A stretch of DNA of 64,000 nt from Paraspadella gotoi (GCA_051294375.1 JBJCIZ010000282.1:1-64000), one strand, 5' to 3'. Counted from the first letter of the stretch, positions 22,745-64,000 are shown. The notes: generated by a model from the sequence alone, not told the origin. Numbers and translations: made by a program.

Positions 22745-22989
22745 CTATGATTTGTAATGAAAATAACTTCAATACTCATTTCGTCTTGTTTCAGCAATTA
22801 ATTATAAAATTAACTGATTATAAAAATGAATTTTAAATATTTAAAAAGCAGAAATCAAAAAAGGATCGTCGCTGCCGGGGTTTTAGGTAAGAGGGAGGGG
22901 GAGAAAGAGAGAGACAAAGAGAGAGATAAAATTAGGTGGGCAGAAGGAGGAAATAGATTAAAGCAGAGCTGTGGCAAAAACTGGAAAAA

Positions 22990-23020
22990 GGCGTGGGTTC
23001 GAATCACACCACTGCCACCA
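22990..23020 (-). promoter_or_regulatory. tRNA-Leu primer-binding site of a further LTR relic (family C; LTR ~23021-23995, split by the TRIM)
   Basis: Plus strand GGCGTGGGTTCGAATCACACCACTGCCACCA matches the 3' 31 nt of eukaryotic tRNA-Leu including CCA; no 5' tRNA half is present. Confidence 0.78.
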
Positions 23021-23211
23021 CATTTCAGTAAGTAAACAGGGAATTCTGGACGAAATCGAAATGTATTTATTGGAGAGAAAATGTACATTAAAAACGGTGT
23101 CAATTTTTGGACAGATTGATTCGACATTGAAAACAAGGGGTATTTAATATTTATACAATGGAACCGGATCGGCGACTCGGGAGGATTTCGTCGCCGGATG
23201 GAAGCTCGGCT

Positions 23212-26788: not shown

Positions 26789-29700
26789 ATCAGTATTTTT
26801 AAAAATTTTGTGCATATACCCTACCAGTTTAAACAAATTCATGGAACCTTGTAAAGTCAAGTAGTTTACAAATAAATGTTGTAATTCTTTCAATATATAT
26901 AATTTTTAAGCTAAGTTTAATCAAGTCTTTTCGTATCACTCCAGATAGAAGTCCCAGACTCCCAGTATTAAAGCTCAGGTTGATGATGGTTAATTACCAA
27001 CAGTTTTTATCACCAGAAAGACTTTTTCAAGGGGTAAAACTAAAAAGGGAACGTCTAAAGGATCATATTAGCAATATATATCATATCAATACAGTAGTTT
27101 TGTCCAGCTCTTAATATTTCTTTTTTTTTTTTTTTAATAAATTATTTAGCCTTTAAAGTTAGAATATATTTAGAACCGTTTGTATTAGTATAATTTAATT
27201 TTTTTTTCTCTCTCATCACAGAGGAAACCGGAATCAGACCGACGACGTGAGAAGATTCGAACTCTCTCATTGCTGGAATAACAAATGGCAACAGCCAATG
27301 GTCAGCCTGTGGATAAGGCGCTACGTGGGCTGAAGATGACTGTCCGTAACTTCTCTAACCCCCTCCTAGCAGCCACGGAACGGGTCCCTGGGCTTGGAAC
27401 CAGGCTTGAGGGTTTGCCATGCCCCCAAGGCGGCTTACGGCCGTCCTCACGCTTCCCGCAGGGTAGGTACCGAGTTGGGATTGAACCCGGTACCTAGTGG
27501 TCATGAGCTGATGGCTTTACTCAATGAGCCACCGGGTCACAACTGAAAGTGTCATGATTCTAGCGGGGTGAACCTAGGCAATGCCCGACTACATGCCCCC
27601 CAGATTGTAACCCACCTGCACTGCTTCCAGTGAGGGAGGGGAGCAATCTTTCAGCTAGACCAAGGGCCTGGAATCAGAAGGTTGGAATACGCTCGACAGG
27701 ATGGGCTCACCAGTGTGATAAGGCGCTACGTGGGCTGAAGATGACTGTCCGTAACTTCTCTAACCCCCTCTAGCAGCCATGGAACGGGTCCCTGGGCTTG
27801 GAACCAGGCTTGAGGGTTTGCCATGCCCCCAAGGCGGCTTACGGCCGTCCTCACGCTTCCCGCAGGGTAGGTACCGAGTTGGGATTGAACCCGGTACCTA
27901 GTGGTCATGAGCTGATGGCTTTACTCAATGAGCCACCGGGTCACAACTGAAGTGTCATGATTCTAGGCGGGGTGAACCTAGGCAATGCCCGACTACAAGC
28001 CGAGCTTCCATCGCGCACGAAATCCTCCCGAGTCGCCGATCCGGTTCCATTGTATAAATATTAAATACCCTTGTTTTCAATGTCGAATCAATCTGTCCAA
28101 AAATTGACACCGTTTTTTTAATGTACATTTTCTCTCCAATAAATACATTTCGATTTCGTCCAGAATTCCCTGTTTACTTACTGAAATGTGGTGGCAGTGG
28201 TGTGATTCGAACCCACGCCTTTTTCCAGTTTTTTTTGCCACAGCTCTGCTTTAATCTATTTCCTCCTTCTGCCCACCTAATTTTATCTCTCTCTTTGTCT
28301 CTCTCTTTCTCCCCCTCCCTCTTACCTAAAACCCCGGCAGCGACGATCCTTTTTTGATTTCTGCTTTTTTAAATATTTAAAATTCATTTTTATAATCAGT
28401 TAATTTTATAATTAATTGCTGAAACAAGACGAAATGAGTATTGAAGTTATTTTCATTACAAATCATAGCAACGAAGGAGGTAGGCGTAGTTTTTATAAGG
28501 GAGAAATAAGAGGAGTTTTATTGACATAAGAACATGTTGGGATATGATAATTAACATAACAAAATATGTAGATTATGCAGAGAAAAGCAGGCAATAAACA
28601 ATATAACAAATAGTCCATAAGGAGTTTGATGTTAGTTCTTGTTCCCTCTCTCGTTTCTCTGCCGTTGGTTTCTGAGGAAGCCTCCTCTCTGATTGGTCAA
28701 TCAGAAGAAACGACGGAGAAGCCAAGAGACAAGTCACTTGATAATCCATTCTCTGCATTGTCACCCCCTCCCATTGCGAAGACCTTCTCTGTCATCTGAG
28801 AATTGGTCGAGTGTGTTCTTTTTTCCAAGTCTCTATTCATCCATCTTCTATGTGTGTTATATTGGCCCCTTGTCAAGCTCATAGGTCCACCTCAGGTGTG
28901 GATAAAAAGGCTGTGGAGAAGTTGAAGTCCACCATGGGAGTATTGTTTTGTCATCCAGTAGTGATTGTGATGAAAGGAATTTAATCTGCCCATTTGTTTG
29001 GAGTGTGCCTTCTAGGTTTTGCCAATGGTTTAGCTGGATGTATCTGGTTGTTAGGTTTTGGTGGAATGATGGTGGTTTTATTTAAGATCCATCAGTTTTG
29101 GGATGATTCTGACAGGAATCTGCTTGTTTTTTCGTCGCAAACGCTTAGCGTTTGCGAGGATATTGTAACGCTTTTGCCCATAAGTGGCGTCGTTGTCGTC
29201 CGCGTTCCAAATTATAGATCGCCTTTTTTATGATTAAATTTGGGTTTATGAAGTTGGAAAATTTATATACAGCTTCTCATCACCGATGTGCTTAAATTGA
29301 GTCTGGACAGTTATTAAATATGTTTTGTTTACGTTTTATCAAAACAAACAAATTTTCTCTATTTTATTTTCATATTTCTCTCTCTCTCTCTTTTCTCTTT
29401 TAATTACATTTATCTCTCCCTCCTTTTTTCCCTATTCACCGATTCATAATCATAGGGAAAAAACGAGTCTGCAGCTGGCTCTGCAGGGGCTTTATTCTTT
29501 TCTCTCTTTTCTCCTGCTGCTTCTGCTGCTGCCTTTTGATTTCTTTCTCTGCAGCTGGCTCTGCAGGGGCTCTTTCTTTTTCTCTTTTTCTCCTACTGCT
29601 TCTGCTGCTGCTTTTGATTCTTTCTTTTATCGAGCCATGACCGGCGAAGCCGGTTCAGGCTTGATTTTGTTTTCGGGTGTGAGCTTCTTGTGACGTAGTC

Positions 29701-32700
29701 GTCGTGTCGTCGTCGTCGGGCGTCACGCTCTTTTTTATCGAGCCATGACCGGCGAAGCCGGTTCAGGCTTTATAATGTTTTAGGATTGCTTCTTTGTGAC
29801 GTAGTTGTAGTCGTCGTCGTCGTCACGCTTTTTTGTATAAAAACTACTATGCTTTTATAGTTTTGCTGGACTTACCGTTTTTTTTTAAATAAAAATTATT
29901 ATATTATTATGATGAAGTTATAAAAGTGTGCGATCATAGTAAGTTAAAAATTTAGATATGGCTTCTTCATCTTGAAATACTTTGATATTTTCTCATTACA
30001 TTTGGATTTAAGTATTTTTGTTTGAATTTCCACTTCATTATGATTTACTGCAAATATGCAAATGAGATTATAGTACTCATTATACATATCCCAAATTAGT
30101 ATATAGAAATGCTTTAATCTAATTTACATATTGCAGTATATTAATATTGAAGATGAAATTCAAAATTTTTTTTTTAAATCTATAATAAAAATGGGGAACT
30201 CAAAGAAACTTTTTAATGAGAAGCTATATCTAATTTTAATACAAATAAAATAAAATCTTTTACAAGCTGCGATTGGAAAATTGTCGCCGACGACGACGAC
30301 CCCGTCAGCCCCGGGCGCCAGGCTGAACTGCGCTTCGCCACAGCCGCCTCAACAGCTGCCGCCTAGGCAAGAAGACGAGGAGCTCGTCTACAACACTGCC
30401 ATCGGCGCCTCCCTAGACTTCGACGCCCAGGACCTCGAGCGGAGCTGGAGCAGCCTCTGACCGCGACCCGCACTTACTCCCGCTCAGGGCTGACTTAAAG
30501 AAATGGCAACAAAGCAACGATGACATCAAATCGGTCGCGGCGATCCTCACCATGGAACCGACGCCGTCAAGATCCACTTCGCGTCCATCAAAGCGAAGTT
30601 GTTAACAAAGACGCAAGCATTTCTCTTCGTGGTAGCTGACGACTTGTCCACCTTGGACGATGGAATCCTCTGCGTGATAGGGTTCCGGATGAAACAAGGA
30701 CTTCGCGTTTCATCGTCCCTCCTGAACACTTAGAGGAAATCATCCGCCTAATCCACGACCGCCGTTGACCACCCCGGCCGCGACAGAACCGCGTATATCA
30801 TTGCACAGTATGTAGCAGCACCTGCCTAGTCGCGGCTTGCTCGAAAATAGTGCTCGAGTGCGAAACTTGCCGGAAAGCGACGGATAAATGAGATTCAGCG
30901 AGACGGAATCAGGACCGACACGCGCTAATCCCGTGGGAGTTGCTGTGCATAAGACGTTATGCACTTACCTCAAGCGGCGGCTTTCAATCGTTTGGTTGCC
31001 TCTGACAACGCCTCCGCCTACACGTGGCCGATCCAATTCGCCGCACAGACGCAAACCATATTATCACTGCCGCTTGACAAACAATTTTTAGCCTTCACGG
31101 TTCGTACCTCGAGATAAACTTTGACGGCCGGACTTCGCTAAATGGTGAAGAATTCGAAGCAACCTGACTTACTGGATATGAGCGGGAAACGGCGGATATG
31201 TCATCTCCCAAATCCTCCGCCCCGCGGGGTGGTTCTAGGGGCGGCCCAGGGGGCAGACTATTCCAGGGGGAGCAGCAAAATGGTCATTGAGGGGGCGCCC
31301 TAATAGACCCAAAATGTTTGCCCCAGGGGGAACCCCCTGGGCGGCCCCCTGGAGCCAAAAAAGTCTGCCCTGGGGTAACCCCTTGGGGAGCAAAAAAGTG
31401 CTCCCCCTGGGGCGAGTTAAGAGAGAGCAAAGTTTAGATAAAAAATATACTTTTCTGACAATGTTATTGTATCTGAGAATCTCTCCCTGTCTGTTACTCT
31501 CTCTTTTCTCTCTTTCTCTCTTTCTCTTTCTCTCTCACTTTCTCTCCTCTCTTCTCTCTTTCTTTACTCTCTCTCTCTTTTTTGTCTTTTTTTTTCTTTC
31601 TTTTTTCTTTTTCTCTTTCTTTCTCTCTCTCTATCTTTTTCTCTCTCTCTATCTTTCAAGACTTGTTTTATGTAACTAAAAAAAAAATATACATTTTTTT
31701 CAAATTATTGTTAACTCGTTTATTCCATATTTTATCTAAAAATTATAATATTTGTATTTTTTAACTTAATTATTTTATTTCAATTAAAAGATATAGAAAC
31801 AATTTGAGCAAACAATGTATGACATGGCCACAATATTTAGTGGTTAAGAAGCTAATCAGTCATCTGTCTTTTTTTTTCTTTTCCTTTTTCTCTTTTTTTC
31901 TTTTTTTTGATGGACAAACTGATGACTGATAGAGAGAGACATAATTTTTAAAAAAAATTTCTAATTTATTAAATAAATCATAAATAAACAAATAATGGGC
32001 AAGTAATCGACAGACCTACTTAGTAGAGTGATATGAAAAATAATAAAATTTTGGGGAAATTAAAATTTAGCATATAAAACATGAACATAAAACTAATTAA
32101 AAATATTTGGTAAATTTATTTTTAATTTATACATTATCGGCACCAGTGAGCTATATTTATATATAGTAATAAGTATATAATAGCTAAAATTTCAAAATAC
32201 AAATTTTTTAAATTTTAAGAATCGGATTTGGATCTTTGCAAAAAGTTATTACAAAAGAAAGTACAATCTTTTTTAAAAATTCTTTCATTAAGTTAATCAA
32301 AATATAAAAAACTATATTTAAGACGCCGATTTTGAATTTCCAGCCTTTAAAATATAGTTTTTATAATTTTAACTTAATAAATGACATCATATTTGAAAAA
32401 GATTTATACTTCTTCATATTATTTACTTTTAACAAGGAACCTGAATCTGTTCTCAGAATTTTAAAAAAACTATTTTGAAATTTTTGACATTATTATAAGG
32501 TAGTACTATATACAAATAAGCTGACTGGGCAATTATATTTATAAAAAAAAGAAAATAAACAACAGATTAGTATTCACTAATATGATAGTTTTCAAGATAT
32601 AACTGCTAAATTTTTGATTCCAAACTTTCACTTCACCCTACTACTTACGTGAATTATGGAGTCCCAAAAACTATTCAGTTCAAGATTTTAATTCATGATC

Positions 32701-33632
32701 AACATTAAATGAGATCCACATCATGAAATAATTTTTTTCATTTAAGATTGTAATTAATAATTGTCAGTTTGTAGATTGCCTCTGATGAACTCACGTTGTT
32801 GAGAAAGGCTGATGGTTTGAGAGAGAGAGAGTAAGCAAAACTTTATATCTAGCTCAATCATACACTTTTCTACCCACACACAGATTCATTCCAATCCATA
32901 TATCTAATCACAAATAATTTGAGTTTAATGCTAATGGGGATGGACTTAAAGACTGATATTAATAATTAATTAATTAATTAATTATTTTTTATAAGTGAAT
33001 TAAAAAACCATCCTACTCTTTATTCTACTATTTAAATTTCATAGATGAATAAGAAAAAATTTTGTGTGTTGGTAGATTATGAAAGTTTATCAAATTCTAA
33101 AAGTTGACCTAATTATATCAGTTGACAAATTATGTCATTTCACTAAATTATGCAAGTTGACCAAATTATGCATATTGGTGTTGGCGCAGCTATTGGTTCA
33201 TTGATTGATTAATTGAATGAAAAATATATTTTATTTTATATTTTATATAAATAAAAGATGAAAAAAGAAAAGAAGATTAGAGAAAGAGAGAGAGAGGGGA
33301 GAGAGAGAAAGAGAGGAGAGGAAGAGAGAAATAGGGAGGAGAGAGAGCCGTTCAGGGGCAGGCAAATTCATCCCCCGGGATGGCCCCCGGGGGAAAGGTT
33401 TTCTAGCCCCTGGGGGTTCCCCTGGAGTGGCCCCTTGGGACCAAAAAAAAGAGGCTACAGGGGGCCGCCCCAGGCAGTAAGGATTTGCTTGCCCCCCAGG
33501 CCGCCCCGGGGCCACCCCGCGGGCCGCCCCTAGCAGCGCCCCCGAGGAGGCGATTCTGAAGGATGACATACTTGGAAACGCGTCCTCGTATCAAGGAAAA
33601 ATAGTAATCGCGCAGAGGGACATCGGGCGCAT
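26789..33632 (-). repeat. Right arm of inverted duplication (indel-rich, ends at a 25-N gap)
   Basis: Contains mirror copies of the TRIM, LTR-D, family B integrase, MULE-like element and hAT-3. Confidence 0.95.
27308..27997 (-). mobile_element. Mirror copy of the TRIM in the inverted duplication
   Basis: Reverse complement of 23212-23904 with the same flanks (AGCC TSD). Confidence 0.9.
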
Positions 33633-33887
33633 CTCTTTCTCTTTTTTNNNNNNNNNNNNNNNNNNNNNNNNNGCCGATAGAAAAATAAAAATTTCGTCGA
33701 ATACTGCTAATCGCTATCAAAGGCAGCAAAACTTATATCCTTAGAACTTAATGCTTCTGGTTCACATTGAAGTTTACCTGCAACTTCTGATTCAAATTTT
33801 CTCCTATCTTTTACGCTAAATTGTATACAATCACCAAGAAAAATCTTCGGTAAAAGATTCAGATTGAATCTTTTTTGATTTTGATAT

Positions 33888-34247
33888 CTTTGCCGTTTTG
33901 TACTATTTTTGGCGAATAAAATATCACGATCGAAAATAGAGGCAAACAGAGTTTATTTAATTATTTACAATTTAAGCGCAGTCACAAAATCTAAGCTAGA
34001 AATTATTGTACAACCATTCGGGCCGAGGGCAGCTTCACTTCTGAAATCATAGTCTCTCCTTCCTATTCCCTCGGCCCATGAAACGTCCCCTTTGCCCTAG
34101 TCCCACTCGAAGCCCTATGATTTGCTATGACGTTTGTGCACGATCGAATGAGAGAGAGGGAGAGAGTGAGAGGGGGGAAAGGGGAGAGAGAGAGAGAGAG
34201 AGATAGGGTTGATCTGAAAGGGGAGGCGGATCCCGTATCCGCTGACG
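33888..34247 (-). repeat. 3' LTR of family A
   Basis: Direct repeat of 43909-44268, preceded on the minus strand by a G-rich tract. Confidence 0.97.
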
Positions 34248-34263
34248 CGCCCCCCCGCCGCCC
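34248..34263 (-). promoter_or_regulatory. Polypurine-tract-like G-rich plus-strand primer site
   Basis: Minus strand GGGCGGCGGGGGGGCG immediately upstream of the 3' LTR; the same motif is at 62951 in the sister copy. Confidence 0.75.
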
Positions 34264-34302
34264 ATGACGAGGAGCCAGGTCTTAGAATGGCGTCGAGTCT
34301 TC

Positions 34303-36160
34303 CTAGCGCCCCGAGGTTCGTCCGATGGCGGCGTCGACGTTTCTCCCGATCGCTTCCGCTTGGCAGCAGCCGCAGCAAACGCACAGCGCGACCACGCCTC
34401 CAATGGCGACGATGCCCATGAGGGGGGCCAGGTTCACCAACCAGTTCCAGATTTCAATTAGCGAGGAATCACCGAATATCCGCCGGATAAACGATGACGG
34501 CCATCCGGCGGTGATCTCGCCTAGGCGTTTGTTGAACCTCTGGGTTTGCCCGATGAACTTGGCATGGCGGTCCATGAATTGGTCTACCTCTTCGTAGATC
34601 GAGAACTTGCTGGTCACGTGGTGCTGGGCGTCCGGAAGCGTGGTTCTGAGCGTCTGGTACTTCTCGAACGGGTTTCCGTCGTTGTCTACGAATTTGTTTC
34701 CTTGTTGGTAAACCGGGGGAGGCGAGCAAGGCGTTTCGAAAGAAGAGTCGATCACGTGATGATATATGGCGTGGCGATACGCCTTGCGTCCCCCGAACAT
34801 TATGGGCAGATCCTGGAAACATTCCTGGTTTCCCGTCGAAGAGCGAGCGTTTGTCGGCATCTCGCGGTGACCAACAATTCTCCACGGAGGACGGCGATTT
34901 TGCCGCGGTCGACAAAAGCGGTGGCCGCTGGCGAGCGATGTGCTTCGATCGCCGCTGTCCTCGCCTCGCAAGCTCGTGTCACGCAGAGCTTGTGCCGTAC
35001 GGCCTTGGTGAGAGAGTCAATGTTTTTCTGGTTGTCTTGCGCGAGCTTCGATGCAGTCTCATGGAGCGCCTCCATCACCGAGGTGTCTCGCTTCAGGCCT
35101 TGGATCCGGCCCTCCGTATAGAAGAAATGTGGTGAGGACGTTTCGTCCACCACCAATCCGCAACTGGAGATTCTCGTCTTCTTTCCGGTTAATCTGAGAG
35201 TGAAGGCGGCGTCACTGGTGCCGCCACACATGACATCACCTCTATAACCCTGGCGGTATCCGGATACCTAGCCTCCGAACAACTCGTCCAACATTCTCCA
35301 AATCGATCCGCTCCCTTCAGCAGATCCCCGCACAGGGTTGGAGCTCCATTTGCGTTGTGGCATCGGTTGATCGCCTTCCGGATGTCGGCTTCGGAGACCG
35401 CCCTTATGATTCCATCCTGGGACCGATACATCCCTCCGGTATATCCGACCACGGCACGGCATCGGGCATCGTCCCACACGACGATTCCGCCTGGATAATT
35501 ACACTGTTGCTTTGCTATATCGCAAGATCCCGCCTTTGAATCTACTCTGTCCGCCACCCTGACCTTTCTTTTGTACAGGGTGAGATTCGAGGCCAGCTTG
35601 GCGTTTTCGGAGGTATACAACCGCCCATGGAACTTCAGCGACTCGCCTGTGCAGCTGCCGTCCGTGTCCATTGTTCCTACTTGATGAGATATCAAATTGG
35701 TTCCTTCCTTTCCTTTGATTTGTATGGGTTGAAGGACGCCGGCTTTGTCGCTCATGAGTATCGGGATCTTGCTCAGCGTGATTCTTTTTCCGGCGTGCAG
35801 ATCTAAACATTCCTGCCTCTCTAGGCTGAAGTGGTAGATGGCATCTATGTTCGGGTATTGGATGCTCCACCTACCGCAGAGGCGTCCGGTGGCGATGATG
35901 ACGAGGTCACATCCATACCCGTCGTGTTCCATGGTGTCTGGGTGGAATATCAGGTGAGCCGTGCGCAATTCCTCTTTGACTTTGTTTGCCTTTTCGCATT
36001 CTCTTTCATCTAATGCAATAGCCGTGTGGTCGGATGTGGTGTTGCAGTCGTAGACCTCTATCCTTTGTTTGAGTATTCCATGCCCGTTTTCTCCGACGAG
36101 CATGGTTCCGGCGGTTACCGTGGCTACCGTGAGGATCAACACGATCGTTTCGGTCTGCAT
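34303..36160 (-). pseudogene. env: Envelope-like glycoprotein (~620 aa reconstructed, 2 frameshifts), chuvirus/class III fusion-like
   Basis: Signal peptide MQTETIVLILTVATVTA; VYDC...C...GCDLVIIATGRLCGRWS...ECLDLHAG...GTMDTDGSCTG; C-terminal TM segment LMGIVAIGGVVAL followed by CVCCGCC; lies between pol and the 3' LTR. Confidence 0.88.
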
Positions 36161-36832
36161 TCTGTTTGGGTTTAATACTGCTTCTTTTATTTTTTAGCCT
36201 TTGTTTGATCTTTATAAGGTCTTTTGTTTCCTTTTCTTTATCCTTTAGTTTTCCTCTTTACACTTACTTGGGTTTGCTCGTGTTTCCTTTTTCTTCTTTA
36301 AAAACAAAAGATCGTTTCGTTTTTTTTCTATTTTTTTTCTCTCGAGTCTTACTTGTTTTGTCGAAAATAGTTTCGAGTGGTTTTGAGCGCTCTACGCTCT
36401 GTTCGCTCCTTTCTCAGGCGCTCGTGACTCGTCGTTCGTTCTATCGTCGTCTCGAGCGTCTGGTCTGCCCCCTTCCTCCTCCGGGCGATCGTAGCGCGAT
36501 CGGCCGGCTTTTTCCCGGTGAGTTGGGTTGAGGAAGAAGTAGGGCTCTCTGTCTGTTCTGGCCTATTTCGCTTTGGATTTATCTTTCTTTCCTTTCTTTT
36601 TGCTTTGTTACTTTGTTTAGCTATATTTCTTTTTGATTTTTACCTTGAAGTTGTCTTCGTACTATGTTCTTTTCTTTTGGATTTATGAGTTAGTCATAAC
36701 ACCTTGCTCTTTCTTTCGGTCTCTCATTACTCTCTTCAATCACTTTTGGAATGTGTTATCGTTTACAAAATATTTACAAATTTACATAGGACCTTTTCAT
36801 TTTCTTGAACTTATGTCCTGAAATCTCTGAGT

Positions 36833-37782
36833 CACCGCCTTTCAATTTGAGGCGGCGTCTGTGATAGAGTGAGCGTTTGCCGTTGACGTTTTACTACGTA
36901 ATGGTTGCCTCTTGCTTCGATCACCTTGTGCGGTCCTGTGTACATCGTTTTCACCTTTGTTTTGTGTTGGTGCGGCGCCTGTTCTTAATAAATCGTGCCT
37001 TACGTAGACGTCGTCGCCTGGTTTGACTTTCTTTGGATTTCTGAACCGGTTTCCTCTTTTTTGCTTGCCTATGTTTGAGGAATCTTTGTTCGACAATTTG
37101 TTTCTGAGCTTCTTGCTGGTTGTCCGCTCTTCTTTGTGCGTAATCCGCTAGGCATTCGTACAACTCTTCGTCCGGCGCTTCTATCAGTCTTGCCTGTTTC
37201 CGAACTGGAGTTCGTGAGGTGACATGTTTGTTTTCCAGCCTGTTATGGGCGTCACGTTTAAGGTAAGCATTAAGTAAGGCAGTGCCTTGATCCATTTGTT
37301 TGGATCATCGTTTAGGGATTTCCTCAACGCTTGCCTGATCCGGCCGATGTCTCTTTCGGCCCGGTTACTATTCTTTCTTGAAACTAGGATTCGTCCTCCG
37401 CTCATTTCCTCACCATTCAGCGACGTGGCGCCATCGAAGTTTATTTCTAGATAGTTTCCGTATAGCAGGAATATGTTTGCGTCGAGGGCCTTGATTACGT
37501 GTTGTGCGTCAGCGCGCCTTAGTGGAATCGCCCAGGTGTAGGCAGAGGCGTTGTCCGAGGCCACTAGGACGTGATTGCAACCCCCACTGGGAGGTAAGTG
37601 CATGACGTCGATGCTTAGTGATTCCCAGGGGACTCGCGCTGCCGTTGGTCTCGATTCAGTTTCGTTGAATTGCATCGTCGGTGGCGCGCCTACAGCGGTC
37701 GCACTCGAGTACCATTTCTCCGCATGAGTTTACCATATTTGGGGCCGCTATGTATTGTGCTGCCAGGTAAGCTGAACGGTCT
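36833..37782 (-). pseudogene. pol: Integrase (HHCC, DDE core, GPY/F-like tail), frameshifted
   Basis: PWESLSIDVMHLP, INFDGATS, NSNRAERDIG, SPHELQFG; ECDRC zinc-finger cysteines near 37700; YTGPHKV near 36930. Confidence 0.93.
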
Positions 37783-38664
37783 CTACCTGGGTGGCCAAGC
37801 TTTTCGTGTATTTTCCTCACTACCTCCTTCAGGTTCTGCTACAGAATAATATATCTCGTTGAGCGACTTGTGGCGGTGAATCCGATAACGCAAAGGATTC
37901 CATCTTTGGTTCTCTAAGTCATCTACATTTCGGAGGAGGAATGCTTGTGTAGGCGTAAGTGATTTCCTCTTCCCCGCTTCGAGGTGTGTTCTGAGGCCTC
38001 TTGCGCCATGGTTTTTGTATATTTCTCTGGCGTCTTTGATCTCGCTGCATTCGTTTTGCCAGATCTTTATCTCTGCTCTCATCGGCATCAGTGAGGAGTC
38101 ACGCTTGATGTTGTTTAGTAAATCCTCTTCGAGGTCGATTTCGTCCACCTCAACCGAAGCTTCGATGGCCGAATCTGTGGTTATCTCCGTATTTTGATTC
38201 GCTTCAGCTTCCCTACCTTTGTGAGTGGGTCTTGGCTCCTGGAATGTAGGCTCGGGTGAGTTTCGGCTTTCACCTATTTTGTTTGTTTCCGGTCTGGTTT
38301 CGGATCCGGCTGGTTGTTCGTGTTCGGTTCTGTCGGGCGAATTGGGTGGGCCCGCTATCCTCTCTGGTGGCTGGTCGTCTTGGGATGGGGGTCCCGCTCC
38401 TCTTTGCTCGTATGGTTCTGGTGCGTTGCTCTTTTGTCCTCTTTGGCTTTGGCCATCGGGGCCTGCTTCTGTTATTTCGGAATTTGGCGGTGCCGCCTCA
38501 TCTCTGTCCACCTCGGTTGGCGTTTCCAATGGCGGCCCCGGCGTTCTTCTCCGATTCTGATTTACAGGCCCCGTGTGGAGGTTGTGGTTTATTCTTATGG
38601 TGTTGGTGGGAAGCATTGATGACGGTCTCATTATCGGTGCCGGTGCGATTCTGGCTCTGGGCAC
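37783..38664 (-). CDS. pol: Low-complexity Pro/Glu/Gln linker and pre-integrase region of pol
   Basis: About 170 aa of disordered-looking sequence, then IKIWQ...LTPTQAFLLRNVDDL, homologous to family B LKKWQ...LTKTQAFLFVVADDL. Confidence 0.75.
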   Translation of the reverse strand: MPRARIAPAPIMRPSSMLPTNTIRINHNLHTGPVNQNRRRTPGPPLETPTEVDRDEAAPPNSEITEAGPDGQSQRGQKSNAPEPYEQRGAGPPSQDDQPPERIAGPPNSPDRTEHEQPAGSETRPETNKIGESRNSPEPTFQEPRPTHKGREAEANQNTEITTDSAIEASVEVDEIDLEEDLLNNIKRDSSLMPMRAEIKIWQNECSEIKDAREIYKNHGARGLRTHLEAGKRKSLTPTQAFLLRNVDDLENQRWNPLRYRIHRHKSLNEIYYSVAEPEGGSEENTRKAWPPR

Positions 38665-39190
38665 TCGTCTGCGGTAGGCTCTTTCCTCTTCGATCCTGTG
38701 TTCCAGCCCATGTTTAATATTTCGTCATTAGTGCACGGTCCGTCTACCAGCTGTCTAATGGCTCTGATCCTTCTTTCGGTGTCGCTGATCAATGATGCTT
38801 GGCCTGTGGCTGTTCTGAAGATTCTTATTTCTCTTTCTTTTCCTCCGCCATATACCTTTTCGTATTTACAGCCGGCTTGTGAGGTGCTGTCATCGTCTAA
38901 TATTTTTATGCAAATCCCTGTCATTTCCGCTAGTGCTTCTAGTTCAGGGTGGCCCAGTGACCAGTCTTTCGATGAAATCGTTCTGATGAATGTGCAGGCG
39001 TCTTTTGTTTTCGGCGTGCCATATAGTTTTCTTATGTTCGCCCTCTGGCGAGTAAAATGGTTCTTCATAAACTCGAAGAATTTTGTTCGAAAACTTTTCT
39101 CATCAATGTTTAGTGCATCGGCTATAATTCCGAGTATTGGGGCTCCGCCTACTCCAGGTGGCCTGGCCACGACCTGCCTGACAAGGGTTC
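38631..39190 (-). CDS. OTU-like (putative pseudo-deubiquitinase) domain inserted in pol
   Basis: PPGVGGAPILGIIADAL...FRTKFFEFMKNH...DWSLGHPELEALAEMTGICIKIL...IRIFRTATGQASLI follows OTU motif spacing; catalytic Cys and His appear substituted. Recognised by eye only. Confidence 0.6.
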
Positions 39191-40447
39191 TTCAGTGAAT
39201 CCTGGTTCGTAACTGCCGTTGATGTCGGACCCTGCGGCTAGGAAAGGCGTGTCGAGCGGTGTGATTTGGTTTTGGTCTGTAAACTGTAAATCTAAGAAGT
39301 CTGCTGGATTGTCGCCACTTTTTACCAGGATAATTTCAGAGGGGTGACATTCCTGTCGTATCTCCGTTATCCAGTGTAGTACGTTTGTCGGGAGCAGCTG
39401 CTGTTTGTCGTGTTGCTGGTCCATTACTCTTTTGAAGTACTGTGAGTCTGTTACTAGGCTAACCTTTCTTCCACAGATGTAACCTTTGAATTTTCTCACC
39501 ATCATATTAAAAGCGAGCGTTTCTAGGATGTTGATATGTTTTATTCTATATTCTTCAGGAAATGATTTCGAGTGGAAGCTGAGGGGGTACTCGGTTCCGT
39601 TTGTGGTTGCAGTGATTAGGCCCCCCATAGCGCTTGTACTTGCATCGGCGTATATTTTGTATTCGCCATTTTTGATTTTTGCATCATTTAGGAAATTTAG
39701 TCCTGGCGTTGATTTAATTTCCTCCACTAGTGTTTCTAGAGCCTTCCTGTGTTCGTTCTTGAACTCAAAGTCTTTCCTGTCAACTAGGGTTAGTGCATGG
39801 AGTGGTTGTGCCAGATACGAAAACCGGTGCGTGAAGCACCTGTAGTAGTTTAGCGATGCTAGCAGCGCGCGCAGTTCCTTCTGCGTCTTAATTTCTTTCA
39901 GTCTCAGTTCGACTTGTTCTAACTTCTCTTTTTGTGGTTTTAGCTTATCTTTCGAGATGCTGAAGCCAAGGATCTTGATGTCGTCCTTCCTTAGGAGGAC
40001 GCTTTTCGTCCACTTGAGGACCACATTTTCTTTTCTGCAAATCTCGAGGAATTCTCTGTCTGCCATCTCCTCAGGTGACTTCGCTGTAAGGATCAGGTCG
40101 TCTACGTAGATGAGGAAGCTTTTGACGTCTCTTCCTAATTCTGCGAAGATCTCATCGAGTATTGCCTGTAGCACGTTTATGCTGTTTACTCCCCCCATCG
40201 AGAGTTTGTTCATTTTCCAGTTGTGACCCGCGCCTGCGAAGGTGGTTACAGGCTTGCATCTGTCCGTTAATTTTACTTGATGGAAGCAGGCAAGAATATC
40301 TACTGAGCATTGGAGCTCGTGAGGTTTATATTGCTCTAGGATGGATGCAATTGTTTGTGGCTCAGTGGCAAAGGTTGATATGTTTTTATTTACCGCTGAG
40401 AGGTCGCATATAAGGCGCCATTGCTTGGCGAATGTTTCATCGTCCAT
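39149..40447 (-). CDS. pol: Reverse transcriptase + RNase H (Ty3/Gypsy type)
   Basis: WRLICDLSAVNK, SVDILACFHQV, LSMGGVNS, IYVDDL; RNase H motifs IYADAS, PLSFHSK, INILETLA, LVTDSQ, NPADFL. Confidence 0.97.
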   Translation of the reverse strand: MDDETFAKQWRLICDLSAVNKNISTFATEPQTIASILEQYKPHELQCSVDILACFHQVKLTDRCKPVTTFAGAGHNWKMNKLSMGGVNSINVLQAILDEIFAELGRDVKSFLIYVDDLILTAKSPEEMADREFLEICRKENVVLKWTKSVLLRKDDIKILGFSISKDKLKPQKEKLEQVELRLKEIKTQKELRALLASLNYYRCFTHRFSYLAQPLHALTLVDRKDFEFKNEHRKALETLVEEIKSTPGLNFLNDAKIKNGEYKIYADASTSAMGGLITATTNGTEYPLSFHSKSFPEEYRIKHINILETLAFNMMVRKFKGYICGRKVSLVTDSQYFKRVMDQQHDKQQLLPTNVLHWITEIRQECHPSEIILVKSGDNPADFLDLQFTDQNQITPLDTPFLAAGSDINGSYEPGFTEEPLSGRSWPGHLE

Positions 40448-40576
40448 TTCGTTTTGTCCTTCTTTGATGTGGTTTGGCTTCTTTATAAGGAAGGCATTCG
40501 AGTAAGCTTCGCCTGTCGTTCTGGAGACGCCTGCTTGTTCGTATACCTCCAGGTATCTCTTTATCTCTTTATCTCT

Positions 40577-42286
40577 TTATCTCTTTACTGGACCTTGGTT
40601 CATGAATCTCGGCTTGGTTAGGTTGTTTGTCGTGAAGCCTAGGTCGACCTTGTAATTTAGGAAACCTTCTTTACAATCGTTTATCGATTCGCCGAATACA
40701 TCCCTGTATTCCCAGAACCACGTTAGCACCTCCTCCGGCTTTCTCGCTGAGGGATGGTCTATTTCTTGGAACGGCTTTAGGAAGGCCTCGCGACCTCTGT
40801 CGTCATGTTTTTGTCTCCTGCTTCTAGCTTTATCTGCCTGTTCGATCTCCTCCTTTGAGGGTACATGCCTTATAATCGTTGTCGGAGGGATTTCCGTTCC
40901 ACATGCTTTTCGCAGTCGGGGTTCTGTTCCCGTGAAGTCGGCGTCCACAGGTCTGCCCGCGCAGTGCGGTTTTAAGCCCAACTCTCTGGCTGCGTTCTCT
41001 GCGATGATTATCCTGGCTGATCCCCAAGTGCCAGGTTTTCCGGGGAGATCTACTCCTTCTTTTAGGTCGTTCCCCGTCACGGTTACTGCTGTTTTTCCAT
41101 CTGTTGATTCCATTAGCCACTTCGAATTGGCTAGAGATTTCCAGTACGTGCGGGCTGCTCTGACCTTGGCGCCCGCGATGCCATTTGTTTCGGCATACAG
41201 GGGGATTTCTGTTTTGTCGTCTACATATTGTCTGGCCAGCCATCTGGCGGCCCTGAGGGCGCTCTGCTTTTTTTTGAAAAGGTGGGTGACTGGTTTGCCA
41301 TTCATATGAGCTACCTGGGTGTCATCCTTGTCGTTCGGAGTCACTACCCACATTTCGTTGCTGGGCCCGGGGTCGGTTGTCGCGGTGCCTAGGATGACGT
41401 CCCTGTCTTCTGCATCGGGTGAGATGAAGAATACTGTGTCCAGGATCCAGTTCTGGAACATCACTCTCAAGTTTAGCCTTTCTCTTATAGTAATCGGTCC
41501 GTTTCCTGTTGTTACTCTTAGTGGGGTTCCGCTATATATCTTATTCATCAGCGACCATTCGTATACGAATTTTCTTGGTATCATGTTTATGGAGGCGCCA
41601 GTGTCGTGTAGGCAACTGGCCGGGGCTCCATTTATTACTGCTGGGATGTAATTGTTTCCCGCGTGCCTGAAGCCTTTACCCGTATCGTCCCTCGGTTTTG
41701 GACCATTTGTTTTACCTGTTGGACGAGGCGCCTCTGGCGGCGAGTCGGGTAAGCGCGGGGGCATTTGTTCATCCCTTCTAGATTTCTCCTTTGTGACGGG
41801 CAGCGTGAGCGTTTTGGGTTCGTGGCATAGGCGTTCGATCCTCCTGATCGTCTCCTGATGCAGGGACTCGCCCTGGTTTGTTCCAACGATTGTGTAAGTC
41901 GGGTTGTAAATCATTCTTCTTGACCTTATTCCACTGAATTCCACGAAAGTTCTGAGTCTTGCTTTGGCTTTGTTTTGCCTTGGTCTAACTGCCTCGTCCT
42001 GCGGAGGTGTTGGCGGCGGAGGCGGCGTTTCCTTCGGCCTGCCGTTTTCACGGTTCGCCGCCTTCTTGCAGAGTTTTTCGCATGCTTTTAAGCGTTTTAC
42101 ATGTGCGAATTTGTCCTTCATGGAGAAACTTTTCCATGGGACCTCAGATTCCTTAACTATGGCCGTGGCTAACAGGTGTCTGTCTCGAACCCCTAGTGGG
42201 GCGAATAACTTGTAGTCTAGCTGCTGCGTCTTTGCCCCTGAATTTGATCGCTGTCTTGGCGCAGTCGGCGAATTTTGCCAGGGCAT
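40577..42286 (-). CDS. pol: Gag C-terminus / retropepsin aspartic protease / start of RT region (frameshifted at both ends)
   Basis: YIPAVINGAPASCLHDTGASINMIP (DTG active site) and downstream DVILG motif; EYRDVF pre-RT motif. Confidence 0.92.
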   Translation of the reverse strand: MPWQNSPTAPRQRSNSGAKTQQLDYKLFAPLGVRDRHLLATAIVKESEVPWKSFSMKDKFAHVKRLKACEKLCKKAANRENGRPKETPPPPPTPPQDEAVRPRQNKAKARLRTFVEFSGIRSRRMIYNPTYTIVGTNQGESLHQETIRRIERLCHEPKTLTLPVTKEKSRRDEQMPPRLPDSPPEAPRPTGKTNGPKPRDDTGKGFRHAGNNYIPAVINGAPASCLHDTGASINMIPRKFVYEWSLMNKIYSGTPLRVTTGNGPITIRERLNLRVMFQNWILDTVFFISPDAEDRDVILGTATTDPGPSNEMWVVTPNDKDDTQVAHMNGKPVTHLFKKKQSALRAARWLARQYVDDKTEIPLYAETNGIAGAKVRAARTYWKSLANSKWLMESTDGKTAVTVTGNDLKEGVDLPGKPGTWGSARIIIAENAARELGLKPHCAGRPVDADFTGTEPRLRKACGTEIPPTTIIRHVPSKEEIEQADKARSRRQKHDDRGREAFLKPFQEIDHPSARKPEEVLTWFWEYRDVFGESINDCKEGFLNYKVDLGFTTNNLTKPRFMNQGPVKR

Positions 42287-43745
42287 CAGACGGTTGCCAT
42301 TTCTTTGCGGCGTTTTTGATTCTGTCAGCGGCGTCGTTTGCTAGCATTGCCGCTTTGGCCCTTTCCGGGGGATTTCCTTTTTCTGACTTTGGGCATGGTA
42401 ATAATAAGTAATTGTAATTTTCGAAAGCTTTATTGGTGCTTTGGACATCATCTAATTTGTCAGTTACAATTGCGTCTCTGCGCCTAAATTCAAATTTATC
42501 CCGTCGGAAATTTCTGTCCGTGCGGGCTTGCCTGCCTTGCCAGCGTTTGTCGTTCCCCCCATCGCGCCTGTCGCGCCACTCGGGGCGTCTCGTGTCTCTA
42601 GGCTGGCGTCCTCTCCATCTTCCGTCGTCCTTCTTGGTTTTGACGGCCCTTTGGATCGCCGACATGCTTTTGGTGAGCTTCTCCATGAGTTCACGCGTGT
42701 TGTTTGCTTCTTGCATCATTGCGCCTTGGTAGAGGGCGTTCGCGCTTTCGGCAGGGTTTTTGTCGCTCAGACCCTTCTATAGGAGCGAGTCCGTGAGGAT
42801 TTGACGATCGTTGTCCTTCACGGAATTTATGAAGCGACGAGCAGTGCCCTCCGATTTATATCCATACGTTTCCAGCCATCCTCGTAGGATCCACTCTATT
42901 TCTTTCCCTAATTCCCGGCGGTTTCCCGTGTCGATAAGTTTCCTGAATTTGAGGACTTCCCTCGATATACCCGGGGCGTACGGGTCCAATGCTTTAGTCA
43001 GCAGACGGGCTACGTGGCGTGAGACTGCGTCTCTCTCCTCCGGTGCGACGCAGTCGAACTTTTTGTAGATTGAATTGACGAGCGGGAGTCCGTATTCGGA
43101 GTGTTCCTTTGGGTCCATTTTCACCACTATCTTCTCGGCTATCTCCGCAGTCGTGACTGACGATTCCTTGCACATCGATTCGAGGCCTTTCCATAGGCTG
43201 CCGCCTATGGGGTCGACATACCAATTCGCCTCTTCGTCGCGGGCGAGGACGGCCTGTAGTTGCTCGTTTACTCGTCTCTCGTCGAAGTCGCAGTTCTTAA
43301 GGTTCCTGTAGATGCCGCGCAGGAATTCCATTGGCTTCTCTCCTTCGCGTCGCCTATCCATTTTTACTGGTGCGCGTGAGAGCGGGTTGGCCGAAATTGA
43401 GCGCGGAGCCGGTTGTCTGGCGTTTCCTCCGTTGGATGCGCTTCTTCGGCGGTCCTCGGGAGAGTAGGCGTCCGGACCCTCCTCTCTCGGCGTTGTGGCC
43501 AGTTCCTCCACTGCTTGTGCCAGGTCGGCCATCTTTCGGGCGAGGGCCCTGGTTTCGGCGGCTGCTTGGCGGGATTCGGTCCTGCCGTCGTAATAGACGA
43601 CCATTCCGGTTCATCTATCCAAGTAGGCTCCTACCATGCCCTGCATGGCGTCTGATGGTTTCTCTCCGGCCGGTGCAGTGGGTTGCAGCGGCGGTATCGA
43701 TTCTTTGCTTGCCCCCTTCTCACCTATGCCAAGTAGTTTTGCCAT
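42153..43745 (-). pseudogene. gag: Gag-like ORF1, interrupted by in-frame TGA (43611-13) and TAG (42777-79)
   Basis: First ORF after the PBS; ORFs 42777-43604 and 42153-42719 are in the same frame; Arg-rich basic block (RWRGRQPRDTRRPEWRDRR), no CCHC knuckle. Called mainly by position. Confidence 0.75.
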
Positions 43746-43886
43746 GTCTAAGATGGAGCGAGACTTGGTTTTTGGCTCAATCTTGTCAGGTGAGAGGGCC
43801 CAAATGGTTTGCGCTTGTTTTAGGTTTGCGTTGGTCGAGCGTCTCTTCGGTTCCTTTTTGCATGGTTTGTTTTATTTCTTTAATTC

Positions 43887-43908
43887 TCGAATCTCGTCGG
43901 TGACACCA
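43887..43908 (-). promoter_or_regulatory. Primer-binding site of family A (primer tRNA not assigned)
   Basis: Minus strand TGGTGTCACCGACGAGATTCGA follows the LTR directly; its complement reads like a tRNA 3' end (TCGAATC...ACCA). Confidence 0.85.
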
Positions 43909-44268
43909 CTTTGCCGTTTTGTACTATTTTTGGCGAATAAAATATCATGATCGAAAATAGAGGCAAACAGAGTTTATTTAATTATTTACAATTTAAGCGC
44001 AGTCACAAAATCTAAGCTAGAAATTATTGTACAACCATTCGGGCCGAGGGCAGCTTCACTTCTGAAATCATAGTCTCTCCTTCCTATTCCCTCGGCCCAT
44101 GAAACGTCCCCTTTGCCCTAGTCCCACTCGAAGCCCTATGATTTGCTATGACGTTTGTGCACGATCGAATGAGAGAGAGGGAGAGAGTGAGAGGGGGGAA
44201 AGGGGAGAGAGAGAGAGAGAGAGATAGGGTTGATCTGAAAGGGGAGGCGGATCCCGTATCCGCTGACG
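43909..44268 (-). repeat. 5' LTR of family A
   Basis: Matches 33888-34247 except one C/T (33927 vs 43948); contains a (CT)n tract and AATAAA on the minus strand; directly abuts the PBS. Confidence 0.97.
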
Positions 44269-45405
44269 ATATGGTTCATAAAAATTCAAATTTTACATAG
44301 TAAAAGTCAGTTATCAAATTTAAAATGATACACATAAAACGTCAATGACTTTTCTAACTAATAAAATAAATCATTCTAAAATTCTAAATACATACAGAAA
44401 TGGGAGCGATTTTATTAATGCCATCCTTTCTGAGTCAAGGGGTAAATGGAAAACATGATTATGATCAAGTATTATTCAATATTCATATTATGAACAAATT
44501 TGTTTAATTATGGTTCATGATACATTTAATACAGTCCATTAATAAAAAAAAGTATGAAAAAAAAGTAATCGTTTTAATAGGATCAATAGTAAAGTCCTGT
44601 ACCAAAGTAAAAATTCTACTTCTTCAGAAATTTACCCTCTAAGAAAAATAGTTATTATATAATAGAATATTTATTTTATATCCTAGCTAGAATTGGTGTA
44701 AAACTAAAGTCAAGTATTTTTCTATTAGTATAAACAAATCTTATAATGCGATTTTATTCGAATACAACGAGATTGATTCAGTGCAATCATCATTAACAAA
44801 CAAACAAACAAACAATATAACCGGATTGCTCTTGGTTTCGATTATATTACAAGTTTTTTGTATCAATCCAGATTGAAGTCCCTGTACAATGTACATTGTA
44901 CAATGTACACACATTGTACACTTTGTACACACATTGTACAGTGAACATAATACATAGTGCCGCCACACAACCCGCAGGTTTAATGTTATACGTCGTCTAC
45001 TTTATGAGCCGATGCAGAGGCAATGATGAGAATTCATCGGTCCCAGAAGGTATAATCATCAGAGCTAACGAAGGTGATAAATATTGATTGATTGATCCAG
45101 TAACTGAGAAATAGTGACAAAGAACATTAGAAAAAGAGAGATATTGAAGAATTAATAATATAAGTTAAACGCTAGAGCGTTGAAAAATAACAAAATATAA
45201 CAAATCAAGTAAGGTACATAGTAGAGTGATGTGAAAATGATAAAATTTTAGAAAATTAAAATTTAGCATATAAAACATGAAAATAAAAACTAATACAAAT
45301 ACTTTGGTAAATTTATTTTTAAATTTTATACATTAGTGGCCAAGAGTGAACGATATTTATATATAGTAATAAGTATATTATAAGCTAAAATTTCAAAATA
45401 CAAAT

Positions 45406-46130: not shown

Positions 46131-46172
<42 letters not shown>

Positions 46173-46595
46173 CCAAATTATGCCAATTGAAAAAAATATG
46201 CCAGTTGACCAAATTCTTAAAGTTCACCAAATTATGCCAGTTGACCAAATTTGTGCAGTTGATCAAGTTCTGCAAGTTGACCAAATTATGCCTGTTGACC
46301 AATTATGCCTGTTGACCAATCATGCCAGTTGACCAAATTATGCCAGTTGACCAAATTATGCCAGTTGACCAAATTATGCTAGTTGACCAAATTAGGCAAG
46401 TGATAAATTTGGCCAGTTGACCAAATTATGCCGGTTGACCAAATTATCTTAATTGATCAAATTATGTCAGTTGACAAATTATGTCAGTTGACCAATTATG
46501 TCAGTTGACCAAATTATGTCAGTTGAACTAAATTACGTCAGTTGACCAAATTATGTCAGTTGACCAAATTATGTCAGTTGACCAAATTATGTCAT
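45406..46595 (+). mobile_element. 3'-truncated H1 element nested in hAT-3
   Basis: 5' hairpin, (GTCC)n, (GATT)n, ending in an 18-bp tandem array. Confidence 0.78.
46168..46595 (+). repeat. 18-bp minisatellite (TTGACCAAATTATGYCAG)n, roughly 23 units
   Basis: Direct head-to-tail repeats without spacers; shorter arrays near 8120, 18005, 33100 and 48430. Confidence 0.92.
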
Positions 46596-47867: not shown

Positions 47868-48722
47868 TTTTAGTCGGTTCTGCTTATCAGCAGATTCCGA
47901 CTCAATAATCCACTTTGTCGGTACGTCGGTCCCACCCTTAAATCTTGTCGGTAAATCATTATTATCATATCAGAACATCGAGTTATGATGAATTAAAAAA
48001 ATAATGTCCGTCCGTCTGTCCGTCCCCCTTAGCATTAAACTCCAATTACACGTGATTGGATGGATGTATTAAAATGAAATTTGTGTGTGGGTAGGAAAGT
48101 GTGTGATTGAGCTGGATATAAATTTTCAATAGAATTGTGCGAGTGGAAATGAGTTTAAATGGAAAAAACAAAAGTCATATTTACTTAAAGTATTTTTACT
48201 TAAATTTACTCATAAATATTATTTTTATTAATAATTGGATAAATAAATTAAATCGAAATTTTTTTGTGTGGGTAGGAAAGTATGTAATTAAGCTTGAAAT
48301 AATTTTTGATGGAATCGTAGGAGTGGAAAAGAGTTTAAATTAGAAAACCAAAAGACACATTTATTTTAATTTTTAAAAATTTTTCTATCTCTCTCTGATT
48401 GATTGGTTGATTGATATATGGATTCATTGACTGACCAAATTATGCCAGTTGATAAAATTATCCTAGTTAACCAATTTATGCTGGTTAACCAAATTATGCC
48501 AGTTGAGCAAATTATACCAGTTAACCAAATTATGTCAGTTGACCAAATTATGTCAGTTGACCAATTTAAGCAAGTTTGTTGATTTGTTATGTTACAATTT
48601 GCTATGATCTGTTAAGATCACAAATTGAAAGTCAGAAAAAAATGTGTGTGATTGATCATTGGATTAGCTTATTACCGCTAAATTAATGTAAGCAGATCCG
48701 ACATTGTTTGTTCAAACTTGTT
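47868..48722 (+). mobile_element. Complete short H1 element
   Basis: 5' AGTCGGTTCTGCTTATCAGCAGATTCCGACT hairpin and 3' GCAGATCCGACATTGTTTGTTCAAACTTG end. Confidence 0.78.
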
Positions 48723-62576: not shown

Positions 62577-63522
62577 CTTAGCAGTTTACGCTATTTTCAA
62601 TGTGTAAATTTATTACAAAGAGAATTTGAAATACGAGCAAAAGTTTATTTACTTATTTACAGTTTTAAAGCGCAATGAGATAAATGAAATTTGCTAGAAA
62701 TAATATTGCAACCATTCGGGCCGAGGGCAGCTTCATTTATGAAATCATAGTCTCTCCTTCCTTATTCCTCGGCCCATGAAACTTCCCCTTTGCCCCAGTC
62801 CCGCTCGAAGCCCTGTGATTCGCTGAGGTGGTTCATCATGATCGAATGAGAGATAGAGAGAGAGGGAGAGCGAGAGGGAGGGGGGAGAGAGAGAGAGAGA
62901 GAGATGGGGTTGATCGAAAAGGGGGGAGGCGGATCCCGTATCCGCTGACGCGCCCCCCGCCGCCCATGACGAGGGGCCAGGTCTTAGAATGGCGCCGAGT
63001 CCTTCTAGCGCCCCGAGGTCCGTCCGATGGCGGCGTCGACGTTCCTCCCGATCGCTTCCGCTTGACGCCTGATGCATCCGGTCGCGCACTGACAGCAGCC
63101 GCAGCAGACGCACAGCGCGACCACGCCTCCAATGGCGATGATGCCCATCAGGGGGGCCAGGTTCACTAACCAGTTCCAGATTTCGATTTGTGAGGAATCA
63201 CCGAAGATCCGCCGGATAAACGATGATGGCGATCCAGCGGTGATCTCACCCAGACGTTCGTTGAACCTCTGGGTTTGTCCGATCAACTTGGCATGGCGGT
63301 CCATGAATTGGCCCACCTCTTCGTAGATCGAGGATTCGCTGGTCACGTGGTGCTGGGCGTCCGGAAGCGTGGTTCGGAGCGTTTGGTATTTCTTGAATGG
63401 GTTCCCGTCATTGTCCACGAATTTGCTTCCTTGCTGATACACTGGCGGAGGCGAGCATGACTTTCGAAGGAGGAATCGATCACGTGATGATATATGGCGT
63501 GGCGATACGCTTCCCGTCCTCC
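62577..63522 (-). mobile_element. env: Diverged family A relic: env 3' end + PPT + 3' LTR (62577-62950)
   Basis: Clear nucleotide homology to 33888-34793; encodes ...EIWNWLVNLAPLMGIIAIGGVVALCVCCGCC. Confidence 0.93.
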
Positions 63523-64000
63523 TATAGCAATTAGACCGACTTGTCATTTTGTAAACAAATCGCCCCATCCCAGGATTCGATCCTGGTATCTAATCGCTGG
63601 ATCGCCAGGACTTACAGCTCGACGCTAGCCAGGCGACCGATCGTTTCTGATTCAAATCTCTGCTAAATAACTTTAACACAGAATTCAGATCTTTTGTTTT
63701 CAAATAATTCAGTCCTCACTCATCAGATGTCGCTCAACTGAATCTTTTATTATCTGTTATGAATTGTTTACTTTATTGAATCTTAACTGAATGATTTTCA
63801 GTCTTGATAATCAGATCTTGAAACTAAATCGTTATCTCTTGAATTAAATCGTTTATCAATTACTTCACTAAAAACGTTTTTATTAATTCATCTAAAAATG
63901 TATGAGTTACATTAAGTCAGAGATGAACATAAATAAAGTGAATCGAATCAATGTTTTATCTACATAATAATGTAAACAAACTAATCTACATTCGAATATG

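Follow-up and report, generated by a model that had tools for sequence, protein, structure and literature searches.

Envelope (env) genes of the chuvirus/gB type have been described beside Gypsy-type pol genes across animals by Chary and Hayashi (eLife 2026, PMC13524379; this paper, the 2023 survey mentioned below and all other papers given by PMC number are drawn on in part), who read the pairing as ancient. Here we describe an element with this pairing at positions 33888-44268 of a 64,000-nucleotide stretch of DNA from Paraspadella gotoi (GCA_051294375.1 JBJCIZ010000282.1:1-64000), the whole of which we call the window. We read it, at a probability of about 0.68, as one of many copies of a long terminal repeat (LTR) retroelement with a Gypsy-type pol and a chuvirus-family env. 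On this reading, the copy is defective, was integrated recently and was likely made with the enzymes of a working relative, and the element is most likely a distant offshoot of the HSV/gB-type Ty3/Gypsy elements already published. The initial annotation had suggested that the env/pol pairing may be an independent capture and the lineage undescribed. In the part drawn on here, a 2023 survey gives no clear case of a Gypsy element with a captured chuvirus-type env, but it is superseded by the later and wider study of Chary and Hayashi; since the pairing is already published there, and read as ancient, the claim of novelty falls.

Like the HSV/gB-type env Ty3/gypsy elements of that study (C1), the element is arranged LTR-gag-pol-env-LTR, has Gypsy-type pol domains in the order protease (PR), reverse transcriptase (RT), RNase H (RH) and integrase (IN), occurs in many copies, and encodes a chuvirus-like glycoprotein with a signal stretch and a transmembrane (TM) stretch, in which we found no furin site. 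It differs from them in that the gag, pol and env frames of this copy are not intact, and in the region between RH and IN, where it has an OTU-like domain and about 310 amino acids (aa) in place of mini or pseudo RNase H domains. The 9-mer of its primer-binding site (PBS) does not appear among the 1,512 elements tabulated in PMC13524379, in a table many rows of which list no PBS. With the Drosophila errantiviruses (gypsy, ZAM, Idefix) it shares three genes and a palindromic target of 4 bp; ATAT is among the three targets listed for them. The genus Errantivirus has AGT/AnT ends, carries an F-type env and lacks the GPY/F motif, whereas the element has CG...AG ends, carries a gB-type env and contains GPH. 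Anakin, a mosquito BEL/Pao element (Dezordi 2020, PMC7642597), carries an env of the same family on a BEL/Pao pol, unlike the Gypsy-type pol found here. Troyka (Kojima 2025, PMC12440569) resembles the element in its 5' CG (CGTCA is a listed variant), LTRs of 100-400 nt, deep-branching RT and tetherless RNase H. It differs in its 3' CG and 3-bp target-site duplication (TSD), against 3' AG and 4 bp here, and in having no env, no GPF/Y motif and a CX2CX8-10HX4C knuckle, where the element has an env, GPH and no knuckle that we could see. The CG start raised the question of membership of Troyka, which is ruled out by the 3' AG, the TSD of 4 bp, GPH and the presence of an env.

Layout of the element and its envelope gene

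The features of the element are, in the sense direction:

33888-44268, minus: whole element, 10.4 kb, LTR-gag-pol-env-LTR, flanked by ATAT
44269..44272, no strand: target-site duplication, right, ATAT
43909..44268, minus: 5' LTR, 360 nt
43891..43908, minus: primer-binding site, TGG start, directly after the 5' LTR
42156..43862, minus: presumed gag, three segments with two in-frame stops, assigned by position only
40580..42340, minus: protease segment, aspartic protease at aa 232-319 (Asp_protease_2, E 1e-7)
39152..40576, minus: RT and RNase H, with YVDD (RVT_1, E 7e-13; RT_RNaseH_2, E 2e-12), Gypsy/caulimovirus-type RNase H, PDB matches
38634..39191, minus: likely OTU-like domain, 186-aa segment between RNase H and integrase (Pfam OTU, E 0.013-0.017)
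37786..38724, minus: bridge, 313 aa, Pro/Glu/Gln-rich, low complexity, no family match
36835..37838, minus: integrase, five segments, with HHCC zinc finger, D-D-E core and C-terminal GPH (GPY/F-like by eye)
36161..36834, minus: A-rich non-coding spacer, ~675 nt, 47% A, separating integrase from env
35192..36160, minus: env piece 1, ATG at 36160, likely signal peptide, likely fusion-domain region (PF24664 profile 17-218, E 2e-7)
34803..35267, minus: env piece 2, mid-ectodomain (PF24664 profile 255-392, E 3e-4; aa 209-356 of the env relative P0021, pairwise E 2e-14)
34306..35016, minus: env piece 3, ectodomain end, transmembrane stretch, Cys-rich tail (PF24664 profile 393-450, E 0.09)
34248..34263, minus: polypurine-tract-like (PPT) G-rich run, directly before the 3' LTR
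33888..34247, minus: 3' LTR, 360 nt, sense-strand ends 5'-CG...AG-3', AATAAA within
33884..33887, no strand: target-site duplication, left, ATAT; a near match or ATAT also stands beside the LTR ends of other insertions

The env is assigned on its sequence to the chuvirus/Monjiviricetes glycoprotein type, as the initial annotation had proposed. All three pieces match PF24664 (Monjiviricetes_fusion) collinearly over successive parts of the profile; piece 1, with 29.9 bits, is the sole one above the cut-off of 27 bits. They also align in order to P0021, an unbroken 576-aa env relative that scores best of the env alignment on PF24664 (E 4.5e-17); piece 3 corresponds to its aa 346-473 (pairwise E 8e-11). 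Because the pieces are collinear with both the profile and P0021, the env is one gene with two breaks. PF24664 is matched by seven of the 12 members of the env alignment. The predicted third open reading frame with its own ATG, signal peptide and TM anchor was borne out as far as hydropathy goes: from the ATG at 36160 the N-terminus is hydrophobic (best 19-mer KD 2.0, at aa 5), as is a C-terminal stretch (KD 2.5). CG and GxCxG motifs are present, and the same motifs can be seen by eye in insect and planarian C1 gB-type rows of PMC13524379. A search of 1.84 billion protein representatives yielded 10 relatives of piece 1, the nearest env relatives being 26-37% identical, and a word search with the env among longer proteins gave 0/3220 candidates. 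Searches with the locus turned up no relative in metagenome contigs or in viral contigs. A Cys-rich stretch of ~50 aa (35240-35390, minus) lies outside the Pfam profile and is common to the env and P0021; it looks like a lineage-specific insert.

The gene order gag, PR-RT-RH-IN, spacer, env follows from Pfam matches and position. The near-identity of the LTRs noted at the outset holds, the two 360-nt copies differing at one position, a similarity far beyond chance. A 4-bp ATAT duplication flanks the element; the chance of such a 4-mer match is 0.7%. The same junction of PPT and LTR stands in the sister copy at 62.9 kb and in contigs from three sequencing runs. The PBS agrees in its last 7 nt with Leu-type tRNA 3' ends given in PMC13524379; tRNA and Rfam scans of the 64-kb window gave no match.

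The element is a member of a multicopy family present in other samples. Part of it occurs in nine of the 11 listed sequencing runs, and more than half of its words in seven runs from three studies; from four runs (three studies) 1026, 710, 568 and 219 contigs aligned at 85% to >99% identity, each run covering 30/30 bins. These contigs also delimit the element. At the right LTR edge, contigs in 4/4 runs track the window through the ATAT outside the LTR and then diverge (among 24 of the 49 loose-end rows); 4, 2, 3 and 1 contigs in the four runs diverge beyond 44272, and one further contig does so after 2 bases. Two left-edge rows, also among these 24 of 49, terminate in ATAT and CTAT. Since the contigs diverge at the LTR edges, the ends are fixed as 5'-CG...AG-3', and the recurrence of ATAT suggests that the element prefers it as integration target. 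A 5-bp TSD was ruled out, because other insertions retain the last base of the LTR and vary in the fifth base of the flank. In two runs, joints reveal a related, empty form of the flanking repeat.

Decay of the copy and the family around it

The initial annotation described a complete proviral structure with two frameshifts. The LTRs, TSD, PBS, PPT and gene order are all in place, but the copy is not complete: gag-pol is spread over 13 stop-to-stop segments, i.e. 12 junctions (11 if one unassigned linker segment is left out), and env alone has two breaks besides these. The gag-to-PR junction may be a programmed shift. RT and IN also carry in-frame gaps relative to their relatives. An alternative genetic code was ruled out by in-frame stops of all three kinds. 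All three genes being broken, no working Gag, Pol or Env can come from this copy, and "possibly infectious" does not apply to it.

The LTRs suggest a different age than the interior. Their distance is 0.28% (95% confidence interval 0.007-1.5%), while the seven best-matching runs contain 57-66% of the element's words, corresponding to a difference of ~1.3-1.8%. If all of this had arisen after insertion, 10-13 differences between the LTRs would be expected, against the one observed (P<0.001). Both LTRs of the window agree with each other at eight of the nine listed LTR differences from the contigs. So few LTR differences beside a decayed interior are most simply accounted for if a working relative reverse transcribed and integrated a copy that had decayed before. 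The element is "young", as it had been called, in its last integration only, and its interior damage would be older.

The same data bear on whether the copy is intact in the animal, its breaks being errors of sequencing or assembly and the element an active enveloped provirus. We consider this very unlikely. Near-identical LTRs alongside 13 or more breaks, N gaps in the assembly, and the coincidence of break positions with three of the 52 best-supported difference rows (of ~2,130), which means that some breaks are not family-wide, would all fit such errors. Several breaks are, however, in-frame stops, and the gaps in RT and IN are in frame as well; at 27 of 40 substitution rows (the best-supported ones listed) the window has A/T where other copies have G/C, which is a pattern of C-to-T decay and not of indel error. 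An error rate of this order would also strike the LTRs, unless these were collapsed, and the other family copies in the window are broken too.

Two further groups of family members lie in the window:

62642..63589, minus: truncated sister copy, comprising the env 3' end, PPT and part of the LTR; 85% nt identity
15100..20899, minus: second subfamily, fragmented and interrupted by other repeats, in the order IN-spacer-env; env N-part 54% and IN core 77% aa identity

The pieces of the second subfamily lie at 15100-16661, 17393-17587 and 19889-20899, and its LTR after the purine tract may start differently. An inverted 7-kb duplication (17534-24448 and 26789-33632, 96.5% identity) carries second-subfamily integrase pieces, and the subfamily is thereby partly duplicated at 26.8-33.6 kb.

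Purifying selection acted on env and IN between these copies. The C-part of env compared with the 63-kb sister copy gives a dN/dS of 0.09 (141 codons, p 3e-12). Against the second subfamily, pN is 0.33 and the saturated pS 0.80 in the N-part of env, and dN/dS is 0.33 in the middle part; IN compared with the 20-kb copy gives 0.06 (79 codons, with dS near saturation).

The layout of the second subfamily also speaks to the proposal of a recent, independent transfer of env from a chuvirus. In its favor, the fusion glycoproteins grouped in PF24664 are viral, no donor is excluded at the low identity of the closest env relatives, and the 2023 survey, within the part drawn on, would leave room for such an event. 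On the other hand, both subfamilies, with env N-parts only 54% identical, have the same IN-env layout, which makes the pairing old within the lineage; no relative was found in viral contigs by a search that reaches close relatives only; and the distribution across animals reported in PMC13524379 was argued there to be ancient. We regard a recent capture as highly improbable.

Two other repeats were seen in passing. An 18-bp tandem unit (46169-46591, 8109-8434, 48432-48576, 33076-33170 and 18008-18103) lies inside a dispersed repeat with GTCC/GACG microsatellites, which looks like a non-autonomous transposon family. A fragment at 61709-62092 (minus) resembles the GIY-YIG endonuclease with which Penelope-like elements end; it had no Pfam match at E<=0.1.

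The pol region and its likely OTU-like insert

Members of the Metaviridae have LTRs, a PBS and a PPT around an internal region of 3 to >15 kb. The element shows LTRs, PBS, PPT, the PR-RT-RH-IN order, an env after IN and a tetherless Gypsy-type RNase H, and on these features is likely a member of the family. The Ty3/Gypsy-like character of pol given in the initial annotation is upheld by matches to RT_RNaseH, gag-asp protease, Integrase_H2C2 (E 1e-8) and rve (E 7e-4). The Gypsy-type RNase H families PF17917/PF17919 are matched at E ~1e-12, and in the PDB alignment RNase H directly follows the connection region without the tether of retroviruses, an arrangement shared with Ty3 and the caulimovirus-type chain. 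IN also matches the foamy virus integrase (E 2e-9). The end of the 313-aa bridge resembles the stretch preceding IN in the second subfamily. The gag segments gave no match to a Pfam family or capsid and no visible CCHC knuckle, and the middle one had no match among PDB sequences. In place of a knuckle, the presumed gag closes with a stretch rich in Arg, Gly and Trp (42450-42620, minus), reminiscent of the GR boxes of foamy viruses.

A BEL/Pao origin, as for Anakin, would account for the family of the env and for the order PR-RT-RH-IN, both identical. It is largely refuted: no BEL/Pao-specific Pfam family was matched at E<=1 in 11 segments, while Gypsy-type RNase H, protease and Integrase_H2C2 were, and 20/20 RT relatives have Gypsy-type RNase H domains. 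The element belongs neither to the genus Errantivirus nor to Troyka nor to BEL/Pao.

The segment between RNase H and IN is, at about even odds or slightly better, an OTU domain. Its Pfam OTU score of 16.5 bits lies below the cut-off of 23.3. The top matches of the 186-aa segment in ESM Atlas (0.91/0.90; 176 shared features) are to clusters in which 19-20% of the members carry OTU. A single-sequence fold, too poor to speak for or against OTU (pLDDT 41), had no PDB match by Foldseek or VIA-align, the best being Z 5.5 on a helical pair, and a comparison with PDB sequences gave nothing meaningful. The catalytic Cys and His were not seen at their expected places.

OTU domains occur in Ginger1 and Helitron proteins (PMC2836005), which are like the element in linking an OTU-like domain to a Gypsy-related integrase or a transposase; in these DNA transposons OTU is C-terminal to the transposase, whereas here, in an LTR element, the likely OTU-like domain is placed after RNase H and ahead of integrase. 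Literature searches brought up no title or abstract that reports an OTU domain in the Pol of an LTR element, and the main text of PMC13524379, in the part drawn on, does not mention OTU. In one of the RT relatives, the Gypsy-type Pol P0011 (1688 aa), protease and RT are separated by a UCH ubiquitin hydrolase domain (E 8.5e-36), which indicates that captures of deubiquitinases recur.

Among the 20 RT relatives, P0001, from a 1.8-kb contig, is 60% identical and the others 21-28%. An RT tree was calculated from 17 relatives, following the removal of P0003, P0007 and P0017 for short coverage; it contains no named references or outgroup and therefore shows distance, not position. RT distance, ends and the OTU-like insert make an undescribed lineage plausible.

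Several results weigh against the reading that we favor. In the tree, which came with a long-branch warning, the element and P0001 stand on a branch of 2.6 substitutions per site, apart from the 16 Gypsy-type rows. In comparison with PDB, RT matches Ty3 (E 1e-18), a caulimovirus-type enzyme (6e-18) and foamy virus (1e-17) nearly equally, other retroviral RTs being much weaker, and the IN core matched only foamy virus chains. The env profile found no relative among PDB sequences, and the fold of env piece 1 on the 12-row alignment, too poor to be informative either way (pLDDT 35), had 0 Foldseek matches at E<=0.001 in a viral library. Neither an unbroken copy of the family nor a transcript was seen; no RNA run was among those listed as carrying the element, which does not bear on its expression. 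As to copying in trans, gene conversion or assembly collapse could have equalised the LTRs, and the missing words could partly stem from variation between individuals or from contigs that dropped rare variants.

The results on RT could instead mean that these enveloped LTR retroelements form a deep lineage of their own beyond the Gypsy clades described so far, comparable to the position proposed for Troyka, and that the ends, ATAT targeting and OTU-like insert are particular to it. This we hold to be unlikely, if worth keeping in view. Its RT is 20-24% identical to the 16 Gypsy-type rows, which share 25-92% (median 35%) among themselves; it has one close relative among 20 matches and is equally far from Ty3, caulimovirus-type and foamy RT. 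The ends CG...AG are neither TG...CA nor AGT...AnT, the 5' CGTCA being a listed Troyka variant, and the absence of the PBS 9-mer from the published table would agree. A fast-evolving host would, however, give a long branch as well, and the lack of an outgroup together with the warning of the tool tells against a firm placement. The GPY/F-like motif and Gypsy-type RNase H are present, the 3' CG, 3-bp TSD and lack of env that define Troyka are not found, the second subfamily may lack the 5' CG (its boundary is unsure), and PMC13524379 has long-branched clades among its own elements. In its fullest form, this alternative describes an undescribed deep enveloped lineage equidistant from Ty3, caulimoviruses and foamy viruses, with CG...AG ends, ATAT-specific integration reached independently of insect errantiviruses, a class III env and a captured OTU deubiquitinase-like domain in Pol, to which we likewise assign a rather low probability; if true, that domain would parallel the ubiquitin-countering proteases of true viruses.

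Proposed working and meaning

Under the preferred reading of a far-diverged HSV/gB-type Ty3/Gypsy element, we infer by analogy that the element works, in an operational sense, like a gB-type errantivirus. Working family members would be transcribed from the 5' LTR, with a host tRNA as primer; reverse transcription would take place in Gag particles, followed by integration at ATAT. Env, made from its own ATG and folding as a trimeric class III fusogen, for which the published type has five domains and fusion loops, would let particles pass between cells, plausibly reaching the germ line from somatic cells if Drosophila gypsy is a guide. A working relative would have taken the decayed RNA of the present copy into its particles and copied it in trans, which would leave the LTRs nearly identical and the interior still broken. 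For the OTU-like insert we predict a ubiquitin-protease fold acquired by capture, which in this copy seems to be inactive.

As a chuvirus-type env on a Gypsy backbone is already published, a defective copy adds little there. The distant RT is possibly a useful branch for the relationships of Gypsy elements, caulimoviruses and retroviruses; Gypsy is called paraphyletic in PMC12440569. According to a 2017 review (PMC5408687), in the part drawn on, no elements but the Drosophila errantiviruses and their derivatives target specific sequences; the apparent ATAT targeting of the present element is accompanied by different ends and a different env than theirs. The OTU-like domain, if real, would suggest that retroelements act on the ubiquitin system of their hosts.

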